Origin: a virus
IMG/VR virus record: IMGVR_UViG_3300025128_000017
Coordinates: 1 to 64,000 of that record
Direction: 5' to 3' (one strand)
Length of the DNA stretch: 64,000 bases
Made by a program: the position numbers and the translations under genes. Shown here piece after piece: positions 59,456-64,000 of this stretch; the first letter of the stretch is position 1; every line of letters begins with the position of its first letter. Under the pieces are notes generated by a model. The model searched no databases and was not told the origin of the DNA. It saw nothing but the letters and a program-made list of their open reading frames with translations.

Positions 59456-59544
59456 TTATTCCAATTATTCATTATTCTATCTATAATAAAGAATAATAAT
59501 ATATATTGTGTATAGAAAGAATAATGAAACATTAGAAACATTAG

Positions 59545-60237
59545 TTGTTAATTTTCAAAACCCTTATTATGTCAACCTCTGTGGCCTTTAACAAGGTCAT
59601 TACTATGGTAGGAGCGAACCACGATAATCACGAGATGAGATTGACAGGACTTATTCTTGCACAATCTGCACTAATTGGTGCGGCAGTAGGAATATTTGAC
59701 GCAGGTATTTGGTTGCCAGCAGGAACAACAGAAAACCATTGGGTAAACGGAATGACATACTCAATGGGTGCTTTAGCAGTGCAAATTCTAGCATACTATT
59801 TGTTTAAAATGTTCTTTGAACAGCAAATGCAAGAAAAAGTTAGAATTTCTGAAATGCAAAGGCAAAGAGATAGTAGATATAGAGAAATGCAATACAGCCA
59901 TGACCAGCGTAGACAGGATATGGAATTGAGAATGCAAGAAATGCAATTAGAAAAAGAAATTATGTGGATGCAACAAAATCCCGGTAAAGCATTTCCACAG
60001 TTTATGGATAAAACATCAAAATATAATTCTAGTAATGTTAGTGGTTTAGGGGTTGACTATAGTAGTTCTGCAAAACCACCGCAACATATGGCAGACGTAA
60101 GTAATTCTGCTTTAACTTTAGGTATGTCAGGTAACAATCTAAAAAGTGATGTTACACCACCAAGAAACATGGATGAAGATGGATATAGATTAAAAGCCGA
60201 TGGAACTATAGACAAAAGATTCAAGAAAAAAAGGTGA
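59545..60237 (+). CDS. Two-TM membrane protein with Q/M/R-rich coiled coil
   Basis: Two hydrophobic helices, heptads, C-terminal 'KADGTIDKRF'; start probably 59605. Confidence 0.7.
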   Translation: MLIFKTLIMSTSVAFNKVITMVGANHDNHEMRLTGLILAQSALIGAAVGIFDAGIWLPAGTTENHWVNGMTYSMGALAVQILAYYLFKMFFEQQMQEKVRISEMQRQRDSRYREMQYSHDQRRQDMELRMQEMQLEKEIMWMQQNPGKAFPQFMDKTSKYNSSNVSGLGVDYSSSAKPPQHMADVSNSALTLGMSGNNLKSDVTPPRNMDEDGYRLKADGTIDKRFKKKR

Positions 60238-60240
60238 TGT

Positions 60241-60507
60241 GTGAAAACGATGGGGCGTATCTTCAAGACACCAAAAGACGATTCAGTTGAAGAAACACTG
60301 AGAGCCATGCACTTGGCTAACACTGTTGATAATACCTATGAGTGGGGTGTTGGATGGTTACGAACTGTTATCTTTTCAGCAATAACTGCTCTGATTATTA
60401 GTTACGTTGAATCAGTTTCTGATTTTAGATTGTGGGGTTGGACTGTTGAATGGTCTTATGAACAGGCTAGAGATTTAGCAGACTGGCTTTATGCTAAAAT
60501 TGATTGA
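60241..60507 (+). CDS. Small membrane protein
   Basis: TM 'WLRTVIFSAITALIISYV' plus Trp-rich tail; AGGTGA RBS. Confidence 0.65.
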   Translation: MKTMGRIFKTPKDDSVEETLRAMHLANTVDNTYEWGVGWLRTVIFSAITALIISYVESVSDFRLWGWTVEWSYEQARDLADWLYAKID

Positions 60508-60519
60508 GGTGTATAAATT

Positions 60520-61233
60520 ATGATGACGGGTGGTAGCGTATTAGTAGGTGCTGCCTTATACGGTCAAGCGTTATATAATTCTTGGAAACCTAGAAGAGTA
60601 GGAATATATGGTACTAGTATGGTTGGTAAAACTACCTTAGATAGATATATGACAACACCGGGTGAAATGGAAGAAATTCCTGTAGATGAAAGAACTGACC
60701 ATTTTAAATTAATAACTAGATATATATTACCTAAACCTACAAGAAAACGAATTAGTTATTCCGGTGAAAAAAGAGTTGTTTATTCTTCTGATGTAGGAGG
60801 ACATGATAGATTTTGGAATCTTTGGATAGATGATATGGTTGCAAGACAAGTTGAATGCGTTGTATACATGTTTGATGATAGGGCTTTTGCAGGTGGTCCT
60901 GATGGTATAGACCAATTAGCCGGATTCAAGTTTTTAGTTGATGCTTTGATAAATCGTAATTATAGGTATAGAACTCTTAAAAGTAGATTAAAGGGTAAAA
61001 GATACGCTCCTAGATTACTTATGTTAGTAGCAAATAAGGCTGATAGATTCTTTGATAAAAGTGCAGCAGATTTATGGTCACAAGGAAGAATAGGTGAACA
61101 TAAAATATTTGACCCGTTTAGAGATGAGTTGATTAGATTGCAAAAAGCAAACCTACCAACAAAACGTGCTTTCATGGCAACTAGGGTAGGTTGGAACGTA
61201 GAGCCAACAATGGTAGATTTATTGACTACATGA
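60520..61233 (+). CDS. Small Ras-superfamily (Arf/Sar1-like) GTPase
   Basis: G1 GTSMVGKT, G2 PT, G3 DVGGH, G4 NKAD, G5-like MAT..G.NV. Confidence 0.88.
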   Translation: MMTGGSVLVGAALYGQALYNSWKPRRVGIYGTSMVGKTTLDRYMTTPGEMEEIPVDERTDHFKLITRYILPKPTRKRISYSGEKRVVYSSDVGGHDRFWNLWIDDMVARQVECVVYMFDDRAFAGGPDGIDQLAGFKFLVDALINRNYRYRTLKSRLKGKRYAPRLLMLVANKADRFFDKSAADLWSQGRIGEHKIFDPFRDELIRLQKANLPTKRAFMATRVGWNVEPTMVDLLTT

Positions 61234-61262
61234 GTGACCTTTTTTATGTGTAACGGTGTCGG

Positions 61263-61451
61263 ATGTATATGGCGAGAGGTGCGACGAGTACTGTTTTAGT
61301 TCCAATTGGTGGAGCAAGTAAGTCACTTAGGACTACTGTGCCTATGTGGATTATTAAACAATTTAACCTCGATGCTGGCAGTAAACTTAATTGGAGAATA
61401 GACATCGAAGGCGACGAGATGCTCATCAAAGTGTCTCCTGTGGAGAAGTGA
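61263..61451 (+). CDS. AbrB/MazE-like DNA-binding protein
   Basis: 'SLRTTVPMWIIKQFNLDAGSKLNW'. Confidence 0.8.
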   Translation: MYMARGATSTVLVPIGGASKSLRTTVPMWIIKQFNLDAGSKLNWRIDIEGDEMLIKVSPVEK

Positions 61452-61455
61452 AAAA

Positions 61456-62487
61456 ATGGTTTTAGATATACCGGATAACATGTATCGAACACTTACCAAC
61501 ACACCATTACAAACACATTCTTTGTCATCGTTGAATGAGGCTGCTATGATGGCGATGGCTCAACAAGGCAATCCTCAATTTAATCAAGGAGCAATCATGG
61601 AACAAGCCACTGCACAACAACACATGCAGCAATACGGTACACAATTAAATCTTCAAGTTCCTAAAGTTAATTTTTATCCTTCTAATAATCCTGACCCACG
61701 AAAAGCAAGAAGAAAGGATATTAAACAAGCATATAAACTATTATCTCCGACAAAACGTTCTATATTCGACCCTAGAAGATGGGTAGGTAGTAAATATAGA
61801 TATAATAAAGATACAGGAGTTTGTTGTATTGATGGTTGTAATGTTAAAGAATTAATACAACATGACAATCTGTATGCTAGAATTAGTGATGAAGAAACAG
61901 GTGTAAGTCTGTGGGAACTTTACTGGACAAACCCTATCACTTCACAACCTGAAGCATTTATTGCAAGAACCGGGGTTACTAGTGGTCGTAGATTACAAGC
62001 AACTTATTGTCCTGAACATCTACATCTTTATCATTTACTTTGTAAATGGGAAACAGAACAAGATAAAGAAGATGAATTAAAACCATCTTATTTTAAAGAT
62101 AAAGTAAACAAGGGTGTAAGTTTAGTTACTGTACCTGTTACTGCCATGCAAAGTAAAGAAACACAAATGCCTGAGTTAGTACAAAAATATGAAAACTTCT
62201 TTAAAGAAATAGAAAAAGACTCTAATAGAACTAAAGGGATTAATGTTTGGCACGTACCAAATCCAGAAACTGGATTAAATGATATTACTATGATACAGTT
62301 TGACATGAGAATGTTCCAAAAAGAAGAAGTGCAACAACAAATTGCTGCTCAACAAGCATTTCAAACAGTTTTAAACCAACAGGCTCAAGTTCTTAACCCC
62401 GCCACGGTAGTGCAACCACCACCTGTAACACCAGCACCGGCGGTAATACCAGTAACAGAAATACAACAAAATGAGGTGACACAATAA
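61456..62487 (+). CDS. Hypothetical protein, Gln-rich ends and Cys/His core
   Basis: 'CCIDGC...YCPEH'; low-complexity termini. Confidence 0.65.
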   Translation: MVLDIPDNMYRTLTNTPLQTHSLSSLNEAAMMAMAQQGNPQFNQGAIMEQATAQQHMQQYGTQLNLQVPKVNFYPSNNPDPRKARRKDIKQAYKLLSPTKRSIFDPRRWVGSKYRYNKDTGVCCIDGCNVKELIQHDNLYARISDEETGVSLWELYWTNPITSQPEAFIARTGVTSGRRLQATYCPEHLHLYHLLCKWETEQDKEDELKPSYFKDKVNKGVSLVTVPVTAMQSKETQMPELVQKYENFFKEIEKDSNRTKGINVWHVPNPETGLNDITMIQFDMRMFQKEEVQQQIAAQQAFQTVLNQQAQVLNPATVVQPPPVTPAPAVIPVTEIQQNEVTQ

Positions 62488-63110
62488 TGGGATTATTTTC
62501 TACAACACCAGCAAGCAACAATTCATCATTTAGTTTAGGAGCACCTGTAATGAATACTGCACCTCCTACACAACAAGGTTATCAGAATTCTTACGGTGCA
62601 TCACCATTGACTGCTGGCATATTAGGTGGTGCTGGTATAACTCCGCAACAGTATGGGATGCCCGTTGCCCCACCTTCTGAAACAGATGTTTTAGCAGCCA
62701 TGTTAACAACTTTACAACCGATAGATAGATTTATTGTCAGTCAAAATATGCCTGTATTCATAGAAATGCTTTCTAACATAACCACATTTTCTCTTCTGAA
62801 TGTGTTAAAAAATGCTACTTTTAAACTAGATGAAGAGGGTAACATGTCATTAGATGTTATGTCTTTACCTAGTGATTTACAGACATTAAGTGCAGAAAAT
62901 ATTGTTGCACAACTAAATAGTTTACAAAACACATCCATGCAATCCATCCAATCTGCTGAACAACAAAGGATGCAAATAAAAGCAATGGCTGACCAATCGT
63001 TATTACAAGGTGCTCTTGGTGCAGCAATGCAACCCGGCGTTATGGAAAATGTTGGACAGGCTGCTGGTGGATTTTTCAATAGAGCATTATTTGGAGGTAC
63101 AATGAAATGA
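62487..63110 (+). CDS. Hypothetical protein, Pro/Gln-rich N-terminus and amphipathic C-terminus
   Basis: TAATG-coupled; GAGGTG RBS. Confidence 0.65.
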   Translation: MGLFSTTPASNNSSFSLGAPVMNTAPPTQQGYQNSYGASPLTAGILGGAGITPQQYGMPVAPPSETDVLAAMLTTLQPIDRFIVSQNMPVFIEMLSNITTFSLLNVLKNATFKLDEEGNMSLDVMSLPSDLQTLSAENIVAQLNSLQNTSMQSIQSAEQQRMQIKAMADQSLLQGALGAAMQPGVMENVGQAAGGFFNRALFGGTMK

Positions 63111-63352
63111 TAAATGGAGGAAGTATAACACCTAAGCCAGTTGCCGATATGACGTTACAATTTTTTAATCCTAGACATAGCACAATTGTCGATATGATTA
63201 TGATACAATTAATTGCAGCCATCATTACTAGTTTGATTATTTTAATATACAAAGGAAATGAAATTTCACAAAATGATGCTACACTTTTCTTAGTTGGAAT
63301 CTTTGCATCTTTCATTTTATTAACTACAGTGTATTCACGTATAACGAGATGA
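63107..63352 (+). CDS. Two-TM small membrane protein
   Basis: Two ~20-aa hydrophobic stretches; ATGA-coupled. Confidence 0.7.
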   Translation: MINGGSITPKPVADMTLQFFNPRHSTIVDMIMIQLIAAIITSLIILIYKGNEISQNDATLFLVGIFASFILLTTVYSRITR

Positions 63353-63406: not shown

Positions 63407-64000
63407 GTGACCGAGCGTGAGCAAGTGACAAAAAGGTCCTGTGCCTTTTGTCAACATCCTGATAGGAATGACTTGGAAGACATGATAAGGAACGGAGAAA
63501 CTTCCATAAAAACTCTCGACAAAGACATGGGTTGGAGAGCCAATACAGCAGACCGTCATTTTAGAAATCATATGGGAGAATATCACATGGCTGCTAATCC
63601 TAGTTGTGTAATTTGCACACATCCTGAAAGAGCAGAATTTGAAAATAGGTTTTTTACAGATGGTTCTCAATCTGATATAATAGCCAAAGAATTAGATGTT
63701 GCTGAAAATACTGTTTACCATCATATGAAACATCACTTTCAACCTTTAGTACAAAGGTCTGCTGCTACTGAAGTTGTAGTAAAAGTAGGACATGAAGTGA
63801 ATGTGTTGAGAAATAATGTAGAAAAACTCAATAATAGATTAAATGATTTCTTAGATGAATCTACAGGTTATGAAGATGGTTTTGTTCGAGATGCAGTTAC
63901 ATTACATAAAGAAGTTAGAGAAAGCATAAAAGATTTAGTCAAGTTCAATGAAGCATGGGGTACAACCGCAGAAGGTACTCAAGTCAATCAAACAATCAAT
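63407..64000 (+). CDS. Partial terminase-small-subunit-like protein (runs off window, not in track)
   Basis: GTG start; 'CAFCQHPDR...RHFRNH' and 'CVICTHPER...IAKEL...HHMKHH' tandem Zn/HTH units, then coiled coil. Confidence 0.55.
   Translation, partial: MTEREQVTKRSCAFCQHPDRNDLEDMIRNGETSIKTLDKDMGWRANTADRHFRNHMGEYHMAANPSCVICTHPERAEFENRFFTDGSQSDIIAKELDVAENTVYHHMKHHFQPLVQRSAATEVVVKVGHEVNVLRNNVEKLNNRLNDFLDESTGYEDGFVRDAVTLHKEVRESIKDLVKFNEAWGTTAEGTQVNQTIN

Follow-up and report, generated by a model that had tools for sequence, protein, structure and literature searches.

What does a small GTPase do in a tailed virus of archaea, and why is its gene always preceded by two genes for small membrane proteins? 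The question is raised by a locus in the IMG/VR record IMGVR_UViG_3300025128_000017 (96,157 bp, ~96 kb), the genome of a magrovirus, a tailed virus of Poseidoniales. The window, that is, the whole stretch of DNA that was analysed, comprises positions 1 to 64,000 of this record. An initial annotation, made from the letters of the window, described an Arf/Sar1-like GTPase in an operon with two membrane proteins and proposed a GTP-switched system for membrane remodelling, egress or vesiculation. Our best overall explanation is that the protein is a GTP switch within a conserved late membrane cassette of magroviruses, a reading to which we give a probability of roughly 0.5.

Results

Three tightly spaced ORFs on the + strand (59545-60237, 60241-60507 and 60520-61233) are present as initially described. 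Together with their surroundings they give the following features:

59456..59544, no strand assigned: AT-rich intergenic stretch with TATA-like runs, candidate archaeal promoter region
59545..60237, + strand: membrane protein of 230 aa, ORF with two hydrophobic segments
60241..60507, + strand: small one-TM Trp-rich protein of 88 aa, ORF with one TM segment
60520..61233, + strand: divergent Arf-like small GTPase of 237 aa, ORF with G motifs
61263..61451, + strand: small DNA-binding protein of AbrB/MazE (SpoVT-AbrB) type, 62 aa, sub-threshold match to PF04014
61456..62487, + strand: orphan Cys/His protein of 343 aa, found with the GTPase more consistently than any other partner
62487..63110, + strand: orphan Gln-rich protein of 207 aa, start codon overlapping the Cys/His stop
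63107..63352, + strand: small two-TM protein of 81 aa, holin-like in size and topology only

The ORF at 60520-61233 almost certainly encodes a real GTPase of the Ras-like superfamily (TRAFAC-class P-loop GTPases). All G boxes are present in the window protein, as had been claimed: G1 GTSMVGKT, a G2 Thr, G3 DVGGH followed by FWNLW, G4 NKAD and a G5 of SA type. Among 149 distinct members of the viral family, drawn from five subfamilies, G1, G4 and both the Asp and second Gly of G3 are conserved in every one (100%), 146 have Thr or Ser at G2, and G5 is a pair of the form [A/S][T/A/S]. The nucleotide site of the family is under purifying selection. Arf, Arl8 and Sar1 have a Trp at +7 after the catalytic position, and the reference signature of Arf switch II is WDxGGQxxxRxxW. 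Compared with this signature, the DxGG and the Trp at +7 are found in 149/149 viral members, whereas the Trp before the G3 Asp is absent and the Arg position is mostly occupied by Trp. Also unlike the Arf signature, the catalytic position is Q in 92 members, E in 44, D in 9 and H in 4, and hydrolysis chemistry may therefore differ among members.

The viral GTPase has the six-stranded sheet of the G-domain fold. The apolar or amphipathic N-terminal helix noticed earlier is recovered in the AF2 model, which places a predicted amphipathic helix of Arf type at residues 4-22, before strand 1, with a mean hydrophobicity of ~0.6. A hydrophobic helix at this position is conserved in every subfamily. 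Its Kyte-Doolittle 19-residue peak in the GTPase is 1.04, below transmembrane level (threshold used, 1.6). The hydrophobic moment is 0.36-0.44 in other subfamilies and 0.27 in the window protein; such a weakly amphipathic helix speaks against a membrane model.

Single-sequence searches of Pfam, PHROGs, NCBIfam, PADLOC and PDB with the window GTPase gave nothing, and the sole trace was TIGR00231 at E 0.11. Extreme divergence of the viral GTPase explains why Pfam, PHROGs and single-sequence PDB searches came back empty. The Pfam Arf model PF00025 gave no match to the window protein at a cut-off as lax as E 10, nor to anything in the whole virus record at E <= 1. Among 17 family members, PF00025 matched eight weakly (best E 0.0048), matches to Roc were equally frequent, and Pfam SRPRB matched two, again weakly. 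The best true match of family profiles was Asgard GerdArfR1 (PDB 8OUN; E 3e-7 and 8e-8), with an alignment that reaches from the N-terminal helix as far as strand 4. Arl8A/B and Arl10 followed at ~1e-4 in the family profile search, with Rab33B close at 3.5e-4. The top 31 VIA rows all belong to the Arf family. When one Asgard genome was compared with the viral profile, its three best Arf-type proteins scored 23-25 bits and 16 of the 17 remaining (Rab/Ras-like) GTPases scored 11 bits or less, a lead of ~12 bits for the ArfR proteins. In the ESM Atlas, the neighbours are viral GTPase clusters and then bacterial clusters with PF00025 Arf.

The Arf family (Arf1/Arf6, Arl1/3/8 and Sar1; GerdArfR1, 8OUN/8OUM; HodArfR1, 8OUK) thus supplies the best structural and profile matches. 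It has in common with the viral GTPase the G-domain fold, the hydrophobic or amphipathic helix ahead of strand 1, the pattern DxGG[Q/H]...W with Trp at +7, NKxD and a similar G5 region, at ~16-18% identity. Compared with Arf chains of 160-190 residues, the 237-aa viral model appears to have a longer switch I, a basic segment inserted between helix 3 and strand 5, and an extension around helix 4. The viral protein differs further in coming from a virus of a non-Asgard archaeon and in having partners unrelated to known Arf GAPs, GEFs and coats. A quick IQ-TREE analysis of 27 viral and 24 Asgard GTPases, which left out eukaryotic, ArvA and SR-beta sequences, gave a monophyletic viral clade (99% SH-aLRT). 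This clade stands apart from every group of Asgard GTPases, with a stem of ~2 substitutions per site, and the tree does not fix how it attaches to the Arf and non-Arf groups. The GTPase represents a virus-specific family of its own. By profile and fold, Arf/Arl/Sar1 and Asgard ArfR are its closest known relatives, and the data do not establish that it belongs within the Arf family itself. The earlier label of Arf/Sar1-like is accordingly right about the nearest known relatives, but it finds neither a Pfam Arf match nor an Arf placement in the tree.

The family comprises 507 clusters at 90% identity and five deep subfamilies (G1-G5), with identity down to ~28%, and occurs at more than 340 IMG/VR loci on contigs of up to ~110 kb. 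Two members, P0127 and P0166, had no viral-contig matches. Some members carry the JGI pipeline label 'GTPase SAR1 family protein'.

The genes around the GTPase follow a fixed order: two-TM protein, one-TM protein, GTPase, Cys/His protein, Gln-rich protein and usually then the small two-TM protein. This order is kept with operon-like spacing in all five subfamilies, and the two small membrane-protein genes always precede the GTPase gene. In subfamily G1, gaps inside the trio of membrane protein, one-TM protein and GTPase are 3-5 nt, and the region upstream of the trio has a median gap of 145 nt and 68% A+T. The AT-rich stretch at 59456..59544 may, by its composition, serve as the promoter.

The two upstream proteins correspond to the 2-TM coiled-coil protein and the 1-TM Trp-rich protein of the initial annotation. 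The 230-aa protein has a strong hydrophobic segment (Kyte-Doolittle 1.93, residue 33) and a weaker one (1.39, residue 73), then a charged helix rich in Arg, Gln and Glu, and finally a basic tail that is disordered; its probable start is ATG 59569 (222 aa), not the listed TTG. It had no match in Pfam, PHROG or PDB. Homologues lie directly upstream in 82/83 G1, 4/4 G2, 12/13 G3 and 3/3 G5 loci, and in G4 an analogous 2-TM protein of ~145 aa, without detectable homology, takes that place. The 88-aa protein has its TM segment at residues 42-60 and six Trp (6.8% of residues). Its probable start is ATG 60250 (85 aa), not the listed GTG, preceded by a GGTGA ribosome-binding site that runs over the stop codon of the gene upstream. 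Homologues occur in 82/83 G1, 4/4 G2, 13/13 G3 and 3/3 G5 loci, mostly with -35 to +13 nt between the one-TM gene and the GTPase gene. When the upstream membrane proteins of G4 were compared with those of other subfamilies by hhalign, P was ~0.04, equal to mismatched controls; hence, homology of the G4 membrane proteins is unproven.

Downstream, the 62-aa AbrB-type protein matches PF04014 at E 7e-5 with 23.1 bits, just below the 24.7-bit cut-off, and its gene follows the GTPase gene in subfamily G1 only (70/83 loci). The Cys/His protein is found downstream of the GTPase in 175 of 180 loci and homologues of the Gln-rich protein follow it in 174 of 180, each across all five subfamilies. The Gln-rich protein had no family match, and PDB profile searches with the Cys/His and two-TM proteins returned nothing below E 0.02. 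The 81-aa protein, with Kyte-Doolittle peaks of 2.55 and 2.11, has homologues in 81/83 G1, 8/13 G3 and 3/3 G5 loci and no significant Pfam match. Among the cassette partners no GAP, GEF, coat, holin or lytic-enzyme fold was recognisable, nor any other known fold. The two membrane proteins are indeed conserved with the GTPase, but the unit is larger than the operon first proposed and its tightest partners are the downstream Cys/His and Gln-rich proteins.

The synteny check that had been suggested for related viruses shows neighbours conserved with the GTPase across deep divergence in five subfamilies, and we consider it very probable that these genes form a functional cassette. Gene order is conserved throughout magrovirus genomes (PMC5434244), so that synteny alone does not prove functional linkage.

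The cassette stands at the head of the late genes, and the GTPase gene is a core late gene of magroviruses. A gene for an HTH protein lies directly downstream, as do those for large terminase, portal and capsid; on the same strand, the rest of the record encodes large terminase, portal, prohead protease, capsid protein and tail tube, in agreement with the late-gene direction noted before. The virus is a tailed virus of archaea as proposed, but its host belongs to Poseidoniales (Marine Group II) rather than to the haloarchaea. Magroviruses of Marine Group II archaea that carry this GTPase are abundant in the ocean. No paper describing a magrovirus GTPase was found in the searchable literature.

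Discussion

According to our model, the GTP-bound form would expose the N-terminal hydrophobic helix, as in Arf and Sar1, and the exposed helix would dock the GTPase on the host cytoplasmic membrane, the site of the co-encoded membrane proteins, where it may contact its neighbours. The Cys/His and Gln-rich proteins could act as regulator or effector. Together, the proteins of the cassette would govern a step at the membrane late in infection, most probably when or in what manner the membrane is disrupted to release virions. In ArvA, a vesicle-forming Arf-like GTPase, the model has a precedent from archaea (PMC10927574). We regard action of the GTPase at a membrane as somewhat probable. A role in egress or lysis specifically is a tentative proposal, with the odds leaning against it. 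We hold as doubtful the still more specific picture of a GTP-timed egress machine, in which an Arf-like switch docks late and sets off or coordinates a breach of the membrane by the small membrane proteins.

In phage lambda, the lysis genes S-R-Rz immediately precede those for terminase. Lysis cassettes of phages, which encode holin, antiholin and spanin, resemble the viral cassette in position and architecture only: small membrane proteins are grouped at the head of the late transcript, beside packaging genes. The 230-aa, 88-aa and 81-aa proteins, with one or two TM segments each, share no more than this architecture. Unlike phage lysis cassettes, the viral cassette has no endolysin and no holin-family homology, and Pfam, PHROG and PADLOC gave no match to holins or lytic enzymes among its proteins. 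The earlier statement that no holin or endolysin is recognisable holds for the ~40 ORFs that the Pfam scans covered. To our knowledge, no known phage lysis system contains a GTPase.

Other explanations can be weighed against this model. The GTPase, Cys/His and Gln-rich proteins might function in building the virion or packaging its genome, for example as a checkpoint or scaffold of assembly, with the membrane proteins as mere neighbours. The position of the cassette directly upstream of the HTH protein, large terminase, portal and capsid genes fits such a role, and so does the finding that the partners detectable by sequence in all five subfamilies are the soluble Cys/His and Gln-rich proteins and not the membrane proteins. 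However, the hydrophobic helix is kept in every subfamily, two small membrane-protein genes stand before the GTPase even where their sequences are unrecognisable, and we know of no small GTPase involved in head or tail assembly of a tailed virus; we regard this explanation as unlikely. A receptor GTPase like SR-beta, aiding insertion of the virus's own membrane proteins, would account for an N-terminal hydrophobic helix. The G3 of SR-beta is DLPGH, which the DVPGQ of distant member P0166 resembles, and the weak SRPRB matches point the same way. Yet the helix, with its peak under the threshold, is not an N-terminal TM anchor. Moreover, SR-beta chains ranked far below Arf/Arl in profile searches and were absent from the best 60 rows of one, putative SRP-receptor chains reached only ~E 0.02 in the family profile search, and profile searches with the partners found nothing like SR-alpha/SRX. 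This makes an SR-beta role very improbable. That the GTPase is a recently captured host gene (a lone moron) or a chance P-loop ORF is refuted. Capture could be read from the 'SAR1' labels and from copies in three GTDB MAGs, binned as Maricaulis, Parvibaculum and an Asgard-labelled bin. They share 69-71% identity with the window protein, on contigs of 8-16 kb; since they are spread over unrelated MAGs, we read them as misbinned viral contigs, a reading taken from this spread and not from other genes. Against capture, phmmer on 1.84 billion proteins (E <= 1e-3) returned 79 representatives, none a recognisable canonical GTPase, and therefore the gene is not a recent host pickup, in line with the initial annotation. 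In a profile search of a 5.8-billion-protein set, the same viral family alone was among the 120 matches listed. The monophyletic viral clade, the invariant motifs and the five deep viral subfamilies with their fixed neighbourhood count against this explanation as well.

Host manipulation is a further alternative: by mimicking a cellular Arf- or ArvA-type switch, the virus might remodel or mark the membrane for superinfection exclusion, for vesicles, or as an anchor for replication or assembly sites. The Arf-like fold and helix agree with this, giant viruses of eukaryotes carry copies of Rab/Ras/Ran, and ArvA (OapA; HVO_3014), an Arf-like GTPase, drives vesicle formation in Haloferax volcanii (PMC10927574). 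ArvA resembles the viral GTPase in being Arf-like and archaeal, with an N-terminal amphipathic helix; its conserved operon includes small partner proteins, one of which contains Cys, and it is linked to membrane deformation (PMC10927574). However, ArvA is cellular and its operon has the DUF2073 (ArvB) and DUF2072 (ArvC) genes directly downstream (PMC10927574), whereas the viral neighbours include membrane proteins and gave no Pfam match to DUF2073/DUF2072 at E <= 0.1. Lacking such matches, they are not ArvB/ArvC-like, and the earlier analogy with an ArvA-type system fails on the neighbours. In addition, ArvA homologues are reported mainly from Halobacteriota, Methanobacteriota and DPANN, and the accessible part of that report does not name Thermoplasmatota/Poseidoniales (PMC10927574). 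With none of the 79 phmmer representatives a canonical GTPase, there is no cellular protein sufficiently similar for the virus to imitate, and a place in the late arm is a poor fit for exclusion or takeover; we regard manipulation of the host as unlikely. Giant viruses (Nucleocytoviricota) also encode small GTPases and are the sole viral structural neighbours among the best 50 BFVD rows, but theirs are annotated as Rab, Ras or Ran and belong to viruses of eukaryotes, whereas the magrovirus family, from a tailed archaeal virus, lacks any near relative in cells.

The conserved late cassette, with its private Arf-like GTPase and membrane proteins, is a concrete and testable candidate. If the picture of a GTP-timed egress machine is true, it would provide the first release mechanism described for tailed archaeal viruses without holin and endolysin, the first small GTPase with a function in a prokaryotic virus, and evidence that Arf-like GTPases have an old viral branch beyond Asgard archaea and eukaryotes. 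The cassette also brings Arf-like switches into viruses of a non-Asgard archaeon. Moreover, because copies lie on short contigs in an Asgard-labelled and two alphaproteobacterial MAGs, surveys of eukaryotic-signature proteins could take them for cellular Arf-like GTPases.

The GTPase and its viral family

Three closely spaced ORFs lie on the + strand at 59545-61233, separated by narrow gaps, as the initial annotation described:

59545-60237, +, protein with two transmembrane (TM) segments, 230 aa
60241-60507, +, protein with one TM segment, 88 aa
60520-61233, +, GTPase, 237 aa

In the DNA, an AT-rich gap of 90 nt precedes the first ORF, a GGTGA site ahead of the second ORF overlaps the stop codon of the first, and a GAGGTG site is located 8 nt 5' of the GTPase ATG. 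Genes 1 and 2 probably begin at ATG 59569 and ATG 60250, respectively; homologue L007 starts with MGRIF.

As a single query, the window GTPase gave no match in Pfam, PHROGs, PDB or PADLOC, and NCBIfam returned TIGR00231 alone (E 0.11). Judged from motif conservation and family-profile matches to PDB, among other evidence, 60520-61233 encodes a GTPase. The Gly, Gly and Lys of the G1 motif, the Asp and second Gly of the G3 motif, the Asn, Lys and Asp of the G4 motif, and likewise Trp102, Asp119, Arg121 and His194 are invariant in 149/149 distinct members, and the G2-motif position is Thr or Ser in 146 of the 149. Residue 95, the catalytic Gln position after DxGG, is Gln in 92, Glu in 44, Asp in 9 and His in 4 of these members, and the window GTPase carries His, the rarest state in the family. 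Among PDB sequences, the best true match of the family profiles was GerdArfR1 (8OUN; E 3e-7 and 8e-8), the Arf-related GTPase from Gerdarchaeales in the study of Vargova et al. (bioRxiv 10.1101/2024.02.28.582541), aligned from the N-terminal helix to strand 4. Arl8A/B and Arl10 followed at ~1e-4, with Rab33B near (3.5e-4).

As a within-genome control, proteins of one Asgard MAG, which has 40 small GTPases by Pfam Arf, were scored against the viral profile. The three best Arf-type proteins reached 23-25 bits and two longer Arf-type proteins 13 bits; of the remaining 17 GTPases, 16 scored <=11 bits and one atypical protein 24.5 bits. Viral switch II reads DxGG-x-x-x-x-x-x-W, with a Trp at +7 that Arf, Arl8 and Sar1 also have. 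The Arf/Sar1-like character proposed initially holds for the best profile matches. Against it, Pfam Arf did not match the window GTPase at all, and the Trp preceding the G3-motif Asp is absent. In the maximum-likelihood tree, all 27 viral sequences grouped as a single long-branched clade (SH-aLRT 99%), joined with confidence neither to Arf nor to non-Arf Asgard GTPases. Because of the missing Pfam match and Trp, the varied catalytic residue and the tree, we term the proteins a separate, Arf-like viral family; membership of the Arf family proper is not demonstrated by these sequence comparisons.

The N-terminal helix, annotated initially as apolar or amphipathic, is indeed hydrophobic (mean hydrophobicity ~0.6; Kyte-Doolittle value 1.04, under the transmembrane level), but its amphipathic moment is modest in the window protein (0.27) and higher in other subfamilies (0.36-0.44). 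These values fit a predicted peripheral membrane-binding helix.

In a separate protein of 2,161 aa (P0180), six separate stretches match GTPase residues 205-229 (E 3.6e-9); this may be a repeat protein with a short motif in common with the GTPase.

Distribution and novelty

The family comprises 507 clusters at 90% identity from marine metagenomes, some carrying the JGI pipeline label 'GTPase SAR1 family protein'. It divides into five subfamilies, all from viral or virus-like contigs of up to ~110 kb:

G1 (window), 185 IMG/VR loci
G2, 4 loci
G3, 13 loci
G4, 140 loci
G5, metagenome contigs up to 81 kb

A phmmer search of 1.84 billion representatives retrieved no more than 79 proteins, of which many were fragments and none a recognisable canonical GTPase. 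Both this result and the viral subfamilies argue against a recent, lone host-derived gene. Three GTDB MAG copies, 69-71% identical to the window GTPase, lie on contigs of 8-16 kb (L088, L090 and L089, the last being JABLTJ010000060.1, 8,011 bp). We read them as misbinned magrovirus contigs, since they are spread over Maricaulis, Parvibaculum and 'Promethearchaeati' (Asgard) bins; the 'Promethearchaeati' MAG holds 40 small GTPases of its own. Viral Arf-like genes in such bins could pass for cellular ones in surveys.

The word GTPase is absent from the main text of the magrovirus and Poseidoniales-virus papers and of the archaeal tailed-virus survey that were searched, and a literature search for virus-encoded Arf-like GTPases of archaeal viruses gave nothing relevant. 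In a viral structure library, 50/50 structural neighbours listed were from giant viruses of eukaryotes. The Arf-like GTPase of magroviruses is therefore new to the literature searched, and the SAR1-family label on some members pre-exists in automated annotation.

A conserved cassette in the late arm

The arrangement in 183 loci begins with a small two-TM protein (137-272 aa), then a small protein of ~70-88 aa that mostly has a single hydrophobic segment, followed by the GTPase, a Cys/His protein, a Gln-rich protein and often a small two-TM protein. The three-gene operon claimed initially is conserved together, but is only the front of this larger unit. Iterative profile searches inside loci detected the partners across the family:

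Cys/His protein, homologue in 175/180 loci, all five subfamilies
Gln-rich protein, homologue in 174/180 loci, all five subfamilies
Two upstream membrane proteins, detectable homologues in subfamilies G1, G2, G3 and G5

Upstream proteins of subfamily G4 are equal in size and position, have predicted TM segments in most representative loci examined, and are kept within the subfamily (77-78/80); hhalign gave no link to those of other subfamilies (P ~0.04, as for mismatched controls). The distance from the one-TM gene to the GTPase falls mostly between -35 and +13 nt; from the GTPase to the Cys/His gene, median distances range from -4 to +13 nt in subfamilies G2-G4. This spacing is operon-like.

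An AbrB/MazE-type gene (PF04014, E 7e-5) is confined to subfamily G1. Immediately 3' of the GTPase stop and before this gene (61234-61262) is a T6 run; runs of T5+ occur there in 34/83 G1 loci and in none of subfamilies G2-G4, and may represent a partial archaeal terminator linked to the AbrB insertion. In subfamily G5, an additional gene for an acidic protein separates the one-TM gene from the GTPase. The protein (~250-260 aa) combines a conserved N-terminal domain of ~110 aa with an extreme poly-Asp/Glu tail ending in GIVTWD, and has no homologue in the other four subfamilies:

L214:7229-7999, acidic protein
L219:6435-7181, acidic protein
L223:7217-7999, acidic protein

The source virus record is 96,157 bp, of which the window covers bases 1-64000, with G+C ~36%. 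Its relevant genes are:

minus strand, thermosome-type chaperonin, family B DNA polymerase, RFC-like clamp loader
minus strand, SNF2 helicase, PD-(D/E)XK nuclease, ArdC-metallopeptidase
+ strand, downstream of cassette, large terminase, portal, prohead protease, HK97-type capsid protein, tail tube

Magroviruses, tailed viruses of Marine Group II archaea (Poseidoniales), have a matching gene set (PMC5434244), and so the source virus is not haloarchaeal. The late-gene direction assigned initially is right, as the cassette heads the structural arm.

Possible role

A conserved, virus-specific nucleotide-binding switch is encoded in the late arm, always beside small membrane-protein genes. Cassette synteny is suggestive of functional coupling, and is no proof of it because magroviruses generally keep their gene order (PMC5434244). 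Cassette partners matched no known family or fold, with nothing below E 0.02 in PDB profile searches for the Cys/His and two-TM proteins. The viral neighbours differ from ArvB/ArvC (DUF2073/DUF2072) of the Haloferax volcanii vesiculation operon, as none matched Pfam.

By analogy with Arf, Sar1 and ArvA, GTP loading would free the N-terminal helix to dock on the host membrane, where the co-encoded membrane proteins and two orphan proteins would join the GTPase in a late membrane event. We put the probability that the cassette acts at the membrane at about 0.6. Lysis genes of phage lambda adjoin its packaging genes, and the magrovirus cassette occupies an equivalent place. To our knowledge, magroviruses have no known egress system; together with three holin-sized membrane proteins in the cassette and this lysis-like position, this makes virion release the most economical candidate, although egress specifically is tentative, at clearly less than even odds. 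Alternatively, the cassette may control assembly or packaging, may manipulate the membrane for another purpose, or its GTPase may be an SR-beta-like insertion aid.

Neighbouring ORFs

A 228-aa protein with Cys pairs follows the cassette (63407-64000, continuing to 64093 in the complete record). It is kept in subfamilies G1 and G3, has weak HTH matches (HTH_20, E 4e-5; phrog_867 DNA-binding domain) and could be small-terminase-like or regulatory. Beyond the window, a 389-aa ORF between the large terminase and portal (70516-71685 of the complete record, L086:6516-7685) has a weak LAGLIDADG_3 match (E 0.002) and may be a homing endonuclease.
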